Shown one piece after another: positions 57,543 to 58,334 of a DNA stretch of 64,000 nucleotides. This DNA is from an uncultured Candidatus Binatia bacterium. Lineage in GTDB: Bacteria > Desulfobacterota > Binatia > Bin18. The stretch is taken from positions 2,496,001-2,560,000 of the forward strand of contig OZ241744.1 in assembly GCA_965200965.1 (NCBI GenBank). Direction: 5' to 3'. Positions within the stretch are counted from its first letter, which is position 1; every line of letters starts with the position of its first letter. A program made the translations under genes and the position numbers. Below the pieces are notes generated by a model. It was not told the origin of the DNA, made no database searches, and worked only from the letters and a program-made list of their open reading frames with translations.

Positions 57543-58334
57543 GCGCTCGAGCGCTTGCAAAATTAAACCCGCCGCCCCCGATTCCCCCCACACGCTCGCA
57601 TCGATCAGCAGGTGATAGCGGCTCGGGTCACGCCAGTCCCCGTGGTAGAAGGTGTGAACATAGTCGCCGCGCAGCCGGTCCATGCCGGCGATCCGTTGCG
57701 CGGCTTCGTCACCCGACAGGCTCTCAATTTCCATCACCCGCTCAATACGCGCCTGGAGCGGGGCGGTGAGAAAGATGTGCAGGGCGGCGGGCTGCCCGGC
57801 CAGCACATAATTGCCGCCCCGGCCAACAATAATCGCCTGTCCGCCCTCGGCCACCTCTTCAATCAGCGACCGGGTCATGCGGACGAGCTGAGCGTCGTTG
57901 AGCCACAGCGGCGGTGGAATGTCGTAGGCCGATTCAAAGCCACCCATGCCGAACAGCCCGACCATGCGCTCAATAAAGGAATCGACCCGTTCGTCCTTGG
58001 CGTCCACATACTCTTCCGACACCTTGTACTGGCTGGCGATTTTACGAACGATTTCTTTTTCCCACACGGTCCAGCCCAAACGCTGGCCGAGGGCACGGGC
58101 GATACGGTTCCCGCCGCTGCCGTACATATGAGAAATGGTCAGGACCGACTTAGTGCCGCAAAGACACCGAGGAGTGAACGTGTCATCAGAGCGACATGAC
58201 GGCGACACGTTCACTCCTTTCGGCCTGTCTTCCTCTTGGCGAGCGGGTGGTGCGATTGGTCTTTGAGCCATAGCGGCCTCCTTCACAGCGGGGATGTTCT
58301 CAGCCAGAGAGCGGTCATCGGTCTCTTGAGACAT
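57531..58334 (-). CDS. cytidylate kinase-like family protein
   Basis: LTISHMYGSGG..IA..LG, IIVGRGG.YVL, R..RVM, D..R..Y..FY, YHL.ID. Confidence 0.85.
   Translation of the reverse strand: MSQETDDRSLAENIPAVKEAAMAQRPIAPPARQEEDRPKGVNVSPSCRSDDTFTPRCLCGTKSVLTISHMYGSGGNRIARALGQRLGWTVWEKEIVRKIASQYKVSEEYVDAKDERVDSFIERMVGLFGMGGFESAYDIPPPLWLNDAQLVRMTRSLIEEVAEGGQAIIVGRGGNYVLAGQPAALHIFLTAPLQARIERVMEIESLSGDEAAQRIAGMDRLRGDYVHTFYHGDWRDPSRYHLLIDASVWGESGAAGLILQALERSAS
58160..58264 (-). repeat. composite element: family A (54 bp) interrupted by family B (58169-58219)
   Basis: aaagacacc|B|tcggcctgtcttcctc..gattggtcttt; removing B restores a 54-bp element colinear with the rlmD copy. Confidence 0.85.

Follow-up and report, generated by a model that had tools for sequence, protein, structure and literature searches.

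The cytidylate-kinase-like gene studied here, from a Candidatus Binatia genome (Bin18), contains close to its start 105 bp in which one short hairpin element appears to sit inside another, and the question arises how such a composite was formed and why the gene accommodates it. All positions refer to the window, i.e. the whole stretch of 64,000 nt that was analysed (contig OZ241744.1, 2,496,001-2,560,000, assembly GCA_965200965.1), unless a genome is named; the 3.62 Mb genome containing the window is denoted G000, its sister species G007 and the remaining congeners G001-G006. Read along the minus strand, the composite (58160-58264) consists of nt 1-45 of an older A54 copy, comprising the left arm, the loop and the start of the right arm (58220-58264, inserted after gene nt 7), a younger and intact 51-bp B copy (58169-58219, inserted after A nt 45) and the remainder of the right A arm, nt 46-54 (58160-58168).

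As the initial annotation had claimed, removal of the 51 bp at 58169-58219 restores an A-like unit of 54 bp, whose reverse complement agrees without gaps with the A copy at 4001-4054 in 40 of 54 positions. Scored with an A54 position-weight matrix, which was built from 15 copies (8 from G000 and 7 from G007) with the focal locus left out, this junction ranked first of the 55 possible 51-bp excisions with 51.1 bits; shifts by one base scored 49.0 and 45.7 bits, indicating that a one-base slip is tolerated at small cost, and the maximum in the reversed genome was 17.5 bits. The rejoined flanks match the A54 HMM (E = 1.8e-8); alignment to an A consensus had been proposed earlier as a means of fixing the junction. 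The inner 51 bp represent a full B copy (HMM E = 1.4e-14) with perfectly paired arms, lying in family orientation opposite to the outer A.

The surrounding ORF encodes a Cytidylate_kin2 protein (PF13189; 57531-58271, minus strand, 246 aa from the ATG at 58271, folded domain from about residue 41), which is related to PDB 3hdt and 3fdi. A Shine-Dalgarno-like AAGGAGG (58277-58283, minus strand) is located 5 nt ahead of this ATG and conserved in the orthologues of the genus, an AAGGAG(G)-like motif ahead of the equivalent ATG being kept in all seven congeners. Their proteins begin with MAKSV (G001, G003, G005, G006), MVSGTKSV (G004), MATGAKSV (G002) and MAHRHVRQEEDRTCGTKSV (G007), and the closest database protein with an empty allele, 92% identical, begins with MASGTKSV. 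The N-terminus of the window gene reads MAQRPIAPPARQEEDRPKGVNVSPSCRSDDTFTPRCLCGTKSV, with exactly 105 bp added past nt 7. Since ATG 58271 is the conserved start, all 105 bp (35 codons, in frame) are coding and precede the folded domain. The flanks align to A and the composite is coding, which are the two points on which the initial annotation had made its reading depend. Its two candidate starts fared differently: the one given as 58270 needs a small correction, the ATG occupying 58271-58269, and 58334 is not conserved. G007 lacks the upstream ATG (58334), which is also not preceded by a Shine-Dalgarno-like motif, and a start at the next downstream Met would cost the domain its first strand in the AlphaFold model; both were rejected. 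The 35-codon tail is predicted to be disordered. AlphaFold with an alignment yielded mostly pLDDT <50 for residues 1-38 and about 90 for the domain from residue 41, but only 2 of 15 alignment rows cover the tail and low pLDDT is expected there from missing depth; single-sequence fold prediction resulted in a pLDDT of 37 and was uninformative.

Iterated HMMs detected 122 loci of these elements in G000 (83 B and 39 A), whereas the reversed genome gave no hit. The description of A and B as separate families had to be abandoned: when the B consensus is reverse-complemented, it agrees with the A consensus at 33 of 51 positions, compared with 19 of 51 on the same strand, and several intermediate loci match both models. 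A and B are subfamilies of a single 51/54-bp hairpin family, viewed on opposite strands, so that in the focal nest one member has entered an older relative that is oriented the other way round. The unit comprises a stem of 15-16 bp and a loop of fixed length, its arms have changed in a compensatory manner (46 cells altered on the two sides, a number reached in 0 of 500 shuffles), and its ends read AAG/AAA...CTT/CTC/TTT. Five loci (G000:C1:1712313, 507061 and 684261; G007 ~1267257 and 163601) likely form a third subfamily with another inner arm, which the A and B models detect poorly. An Rfam scan of the window matched a tRNA alone. By BLAST, the family was found in G000 and G007 only among 61 genomes; a restriction to these two genomes was overturned by a covariance model, which revealed 54-bp relatives in 14 of the 61, among them six of the seven congeners (not G004) and seven out of ten genomes from a second genus. 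Nine of the carriers yielded 23-72 matches each. Element patterns returned no match in viral contigs.

The relative age of the two insertions can be read from orthologous sites, for which 1.78 Mb of G007 (~89% identical in the syntenic region) were compared with G000. The focal site is empty in six of the seven congeners and contains 33 bp of A core without B in G007, 21 of the 54 bp of A having been deleted there. A 9-bp deletion in G007 spans the B junction, so that a loss of B in G007 stays compatible with this locus taken alone. Over all scorable loci A54 copies are full in G007 at seven of eight, the eighth being a remnant, and B copies are full at two of 50 and partial at one; these 50 were drawn from the 83 B copies, the focal copy being among the 33 outside the count. 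A54 therefore predates the split of G000 and G007, and most B copies follow it. The order at the focal site, first A and then B, is supported by these alignments and agrees with the earlier proposal that B is the younger. A54 copies are confined to ~2.50-2.59 Mb of G000.

At 24 of the 50 scorable B loci the site in G007 is empty with exact length, corroborating the view that B is mobile and has a 51-bp unit; another 23 lack the element with other length differences and are uninformative on duplication. Furthermore, in G004 the length deficit is exactly 54 bp at six of seven scorable A54 sites. Target-site duplication is absent from all exact-length empty sites (26 in the comparison with G007, 6 in that with G004), as had been assumed for the focal insertion, and at 22 of the 26 no other boundary fits better than the canonical one. 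An intact allele with A alone was seen neither among the metagenome contigs (0 matches to the gene-start pattern) nor among 14 close proteins or the contigs of four runs, contigs being prone to lose rare variants.

Several further copies surround the nest. The nearest B copy (57219-57269, plus strand) is in frame in phoR and has an exact 51-bp empty site in G007, and about 70 bp from it lies a decayed A54 core (~57124-57149, minus strand), for which G007 has a full 54-bp copy. A 9-bp in-frame indel was observed in this core among conspecific strains, the longer form being present in three of four runs. With another in-frame B copy at 56193-56243 (minus strand), phoR carries three family inserts. 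In-frame B copies in a short-chain dehydrogenase gene (59478-59528, plus strand) and a VWA-domain gene (61527-61577, plus strand) both correspond to exact 51-bp empty sites in G007, G004 and G006, and one more B copy is located at 38354-38404 (plus strand). The A54 copies on the plus strand, i.e. the reference copy at 4001-4054 and those at 6597-6650, 10766-10819 and 13712-13765, are all common to G007; in G004 the second and third have exact 54-bp empty sites and the fourth a 54-bp empty site. Two further repeats were noted in the window: a tandem array of about ten units with a 108-bp period (25638-26801), which is missing or broken in the G007 alignment, and an identical 37-bp direct repeat with copies 78 bp apart (44592-44706) in a stretch unaligned to G007.

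The copies spread locally, the most similar copy being found within 20 kb for 23 of 95 (1000 permutations: mean 3.7, maximum 12). The end bases are asymmetric (73 B copies: A..C 26, G..T 22, A..T 13, G..C 4; p = 5e-5), and 48 of 73 have the non-pairing ends A..C or G..T. Flanks oriented by these ends show a G four bases after the element in 36 of 48 and a C four bases before it in 25 of 48, and a G occupies the fourth outward base in 88 of 146 B flanks. A target-site motif, whose derivation had been suggested before, can accordingly be given as a weak C-NNN^NNN-G bias, and the focal nest site fits both preferences. No leading/lagging bias was observed (B 44 vs 39). The density of elements in G000:C1 peaks at 2.3-2.9 Mb, around the GC-skew minimum (~2.48 Mb), a likely replication origin.

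With respect to genes, 55 of 116 copies are located inside crudely called CDS, 24 more in open frame upstream of a called start and 28 between genes; 76% of random intervals fall in genes, and the family copies are therefore not gene-enriched. Of the 42 B inserts in called genes, none is read in the phase that contains a stop in 70 of 73 B copies. This is the pattern which purifying selection on random in-frame inserts would leave.

Taken together, we consider it probable that the composite arose by two successive insertions of a non-autonomous hairpin and was neutrally tolerated; two waves of an element that spreads locally have likely left it behind as a harmless by-product. A54 would have entered after gene nt 7 in the common ancestor of G000 and G007, as the orthologues indicate, and a B copy of a later, mostly G000-specific wave would have followed after A nt 45 without duplication, an event visible in the anatomy of the nest and dated indirectly. 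Selection may then have demanded no more than an open frame at a tolerant location, and the inserts would later decay by codon-multiple deletions, as in G007. Persistence is likely explained by both lengths being whole codons and by the location in a predicted-disordered N-terminal tail.

The strongest rival assumes that nesting was targeted, i.e. that the mobiliser prefers family hairpins or particular sites and that composites may themselves be copied. The initial annotation had already proposed that earlier inserts act as tolerated landing pads and that other composites should be sought. Besides the single nest among the 122 loci of G000, two were found in G007 about 700 bp apart near ispE: a 75-bp in-frame nest at ispE, whose inner copy is cut to 24 bp and which is absent from G000 (G007:C1:882461-882535), and a clean 51-in-51 nest upstream of the gene (G007:C1:883160-883261). 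Both inner copies sit at the same base of the outer loop, as targeting would predict. However, the two outer copies agree at 43/51 positions and could be descendants of a single composite that was copied, and the focal insertion point lies in an arm (nt 45) rather than in the loop. Three nests over both genomes exceed the uniform expectation of 0.16 (P = 0.0006), yet nulls with local density expect 0.46-1.11, with P of 0.01-0.10 for at least three and 0.08-0.30 for at least two; for G000 alone, one nest compares with 0.10 expected uniformly and 0.27-0.65 with local clustering. No further nest was present at 85 hits (8 in G007, 38 in other genomes and 39 partly redundant ones in metagenomes).

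The reuse of sites leads to a similar picture. At three loci lineage-specific inserts of G000 and G007 lie 3 bp, about 10 bp or less and about 21 bp apart, where a uniform null that ignores clustering expects 0.07 pairs within 10 bp and 0.16 within 25 bp. These are the 3-bp pair G000:C1:3254063 and G007:C1:1664771, just before the start of a tRNA-like gene, and the pairs G000 2785483 with G007 1195333/1195392 and G000 2964459 with G007 ~1267257. Some of the close pairs are in opposite orientation; inversion in place was rejected for G000 3254063 and G007 1664771, as their insertion points differ by 3 bp. G007 also has two near-tandem pairs, one of them a 51-bp and a 54-bp copy 9 bp apart in a single ORF (G007:C1:1527309-1527423); together they add 105 bp in frame, and G000 has neither. 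Reuse of sites is raised to a modest degree and fits repeated use of places that tolerate inserts, to which mild hot spots may be added; survival at such places would yield the same excess as targeting. The data do not show a preference of the family for its own members, and the focal nest is within chance under clustering. Targeted nesting appears unlikely to us, and the landing-pad idea is plausible in the sense of passive tolerance.

As to the enzyme that moves the hairpin, the lack of duplication, the fixed-length hairpin, the asymmetric ends and the weak flank motif resemble single-strand HUH (Y1) transposition. A hairpin-recognising HUH/Y1 transposase of the RAYT/TIRYT kind, acting on single strands and in trans, might have copied the element mainly over short distances and would now apparently be gone from G000. 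We propose this step tentatively and with somewhat less than even confidence. PF01797 genes are absent from G000 and G007 in a search of 13 genomes (the genus and five g8 genomes) and likewise from G003, G005 and G050, which bear tens of related hairpins, and none of 14 Y1/RAYT loci of relatives has the hairpin. IS110 (PF01548) is absent from G000 and G007, the two tyrosine recombinases per genome have no element nearby, and orphan half-elements that would mark a long parent element were not found. A Pfam search of 90 of 115 ORFs, chosen beside 36 hairpins of relatives, revealed no transposase. A more far-reaching reading, in which duplication-free, codon-sized elements form a distinct class whose unrecognised enzyme hops locally, re-targets its own hairpins and earlier sites and can copy composites, so that dated layers of 17-18 residues accumulate, is in our estimate improbable.

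Far less credible is a reverse transcriptase that copies the hairpin RNA and pastes the product in. In its favour, the six other congeners lack a close relative of the sole reverse transcriptase found in G000 and G007, and the arms covary as a stem. However, this enzyme is of the UG13b defence type (G000:C1 ~2404900-2406300); it is interrupted by an internal stop in G000, stands beside HEC-02-like genes in G007 and has no adjoining element, and G001, G003, G005 and G006 carry 32-58 related hairpins each without it. Furthermore, G-T and A-C arm mismatches are equally frequent and folding favours neither strand (53 vs 42 of 95), a pattern more in keeping with a DNA hairpin than with RNA from one strand. 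For the UG13b enzyme, reverse transcription is largely refuted.

A composite assembled by recombination or template switching between neighbouring copies can be given hardly any weight. The nested B looks like a mosaic, its loop being nearest to the neighbour at 57219-57269 (17/19) and its arms identical to those of distant copies (30/30), but the next copies reach 16, i.e. the lead in the loop amounts to a single base. The inner copy is complete and exactly 51 bp long at a place where the A arm offers no homology, its flank bias is that of ordinary inserts, and no homology or microhomology was seen at the junctions past the one-base slip. The combination of a rare loop variant, in common with the 57219 copy, and distant-type arms hints at exchange between copies or rewriting of arms. 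Equally improbable is selection for the composite, in which its mRNA hairpin or the tail of 35 residues would adjust the expression of the kinase-like protein or its activity. Contigs of all four runs (three studies) span it without indel, the only substitution listed inside it (58226) is synonymous and the B hairpin forms about 50 nt past the start codon, but G007 deleted 21 of the 54 bp, six congeners have no insert, the B inserts nearby show the same degree of fixation, folding of the 171-nt region does not surpass that of shuffled sequences (z = -1.5) and a single variant provides no power.

The element can be compared with several known systems. Rickettsia palindromic elements (RPEs) are short palindromic repeats dispersed in one lineage, often in frame in unrelated working genes, and in R. 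japonica different RPE groups lie near each other in orthologues, for which hot spots and a common origin were raised (PMC10969869, PMC3733652, PMC3767692); the word "nested" is absent from the main texts of these three papers. The Binatia hairpin is likewise dispersed, palindromic and in frame in working genes; unlike RPEs, as described, it measures 51/54 bp instead of ~105-150 bp and has a non-Rickettsia host. Beyond what is described for RPEs, it offers dated successive waves and local spread. For REPINs, hairpin elements are described as inserting into earlier ones or next to them (Bertels and Rainey 2011, PMC3116915), and REPs are reported as IS targets (PMC3184786). Similar to REPINs, the element is a non-autonomous hairpin with two inverted arms that moves as a unit, as the exact-length empty sites indicate. 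In contrast to the extragenic REPINs beside a RAYT gene (PMC3116915), its copies are often coding and no linked RAYT was found; furthermore, it has no terminal GTAG (or CGTC) tag on short palindromes of 20-40 bp, and its loop is conserved in length.

Terminal repeats of TIRYT transposases form inverted-repeat families that occur as dimers, with the motif GGGGWSAS (Di Nocera 2013, PMC3733652). The inner arm end GGACAC of the 54-bp relatives fits the last six positions of this motif, but it does not match the motif in full, the G000 consensus departs further and none of 14 loci has a TIRYT gene flanked by these arms. Terminal inverted repeats of 15-16 bp, the lack of mobility genes and ORF fusions recall MITEs as outlined in PMC10969869 and PMC3184786; the Binatia hairpin is, however, far shorter, and the Y1/IS110 search found no cognate IS. 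By analogy, the element appears to work like RPEs and REPINs while being a member of neither, and its sites do not show the target-site duplication of a MITE. The surveyed titles and opening parts of abstracts, mostly from open journals, contained nothing about this repeat of Binatia or about in-frame palindromic elements nested in one another.

Taken by itself, the nest is probably nothing unusual, as REPIN nesting and in-frame RPEs have both been described. It does fix the ends of the element and the order of the waves, and the empty, decayed single-insert and double-insert alleles within one genus amount to a datable build-up of a protein segment from selfish DNA. The main interest lies in the family and its mobiliser, less in the focal composite. 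For palindromic repeats that enter genes in the manner of RPEs, the empty sites, flank bias, asymmetric ends and local spread of the Binatia family in two genera provide better handles on movement than most, and the 54-bp relatives of the two genera are the better material for finding the mobiliser. These relatives have near-perfect arms in both Binatia genera and are locally dense (8 copies per 20 kb in G024), and one was observed on a metagenome contig among genes for particulate monooxygenase (AMO/pMMO-like) subunits.
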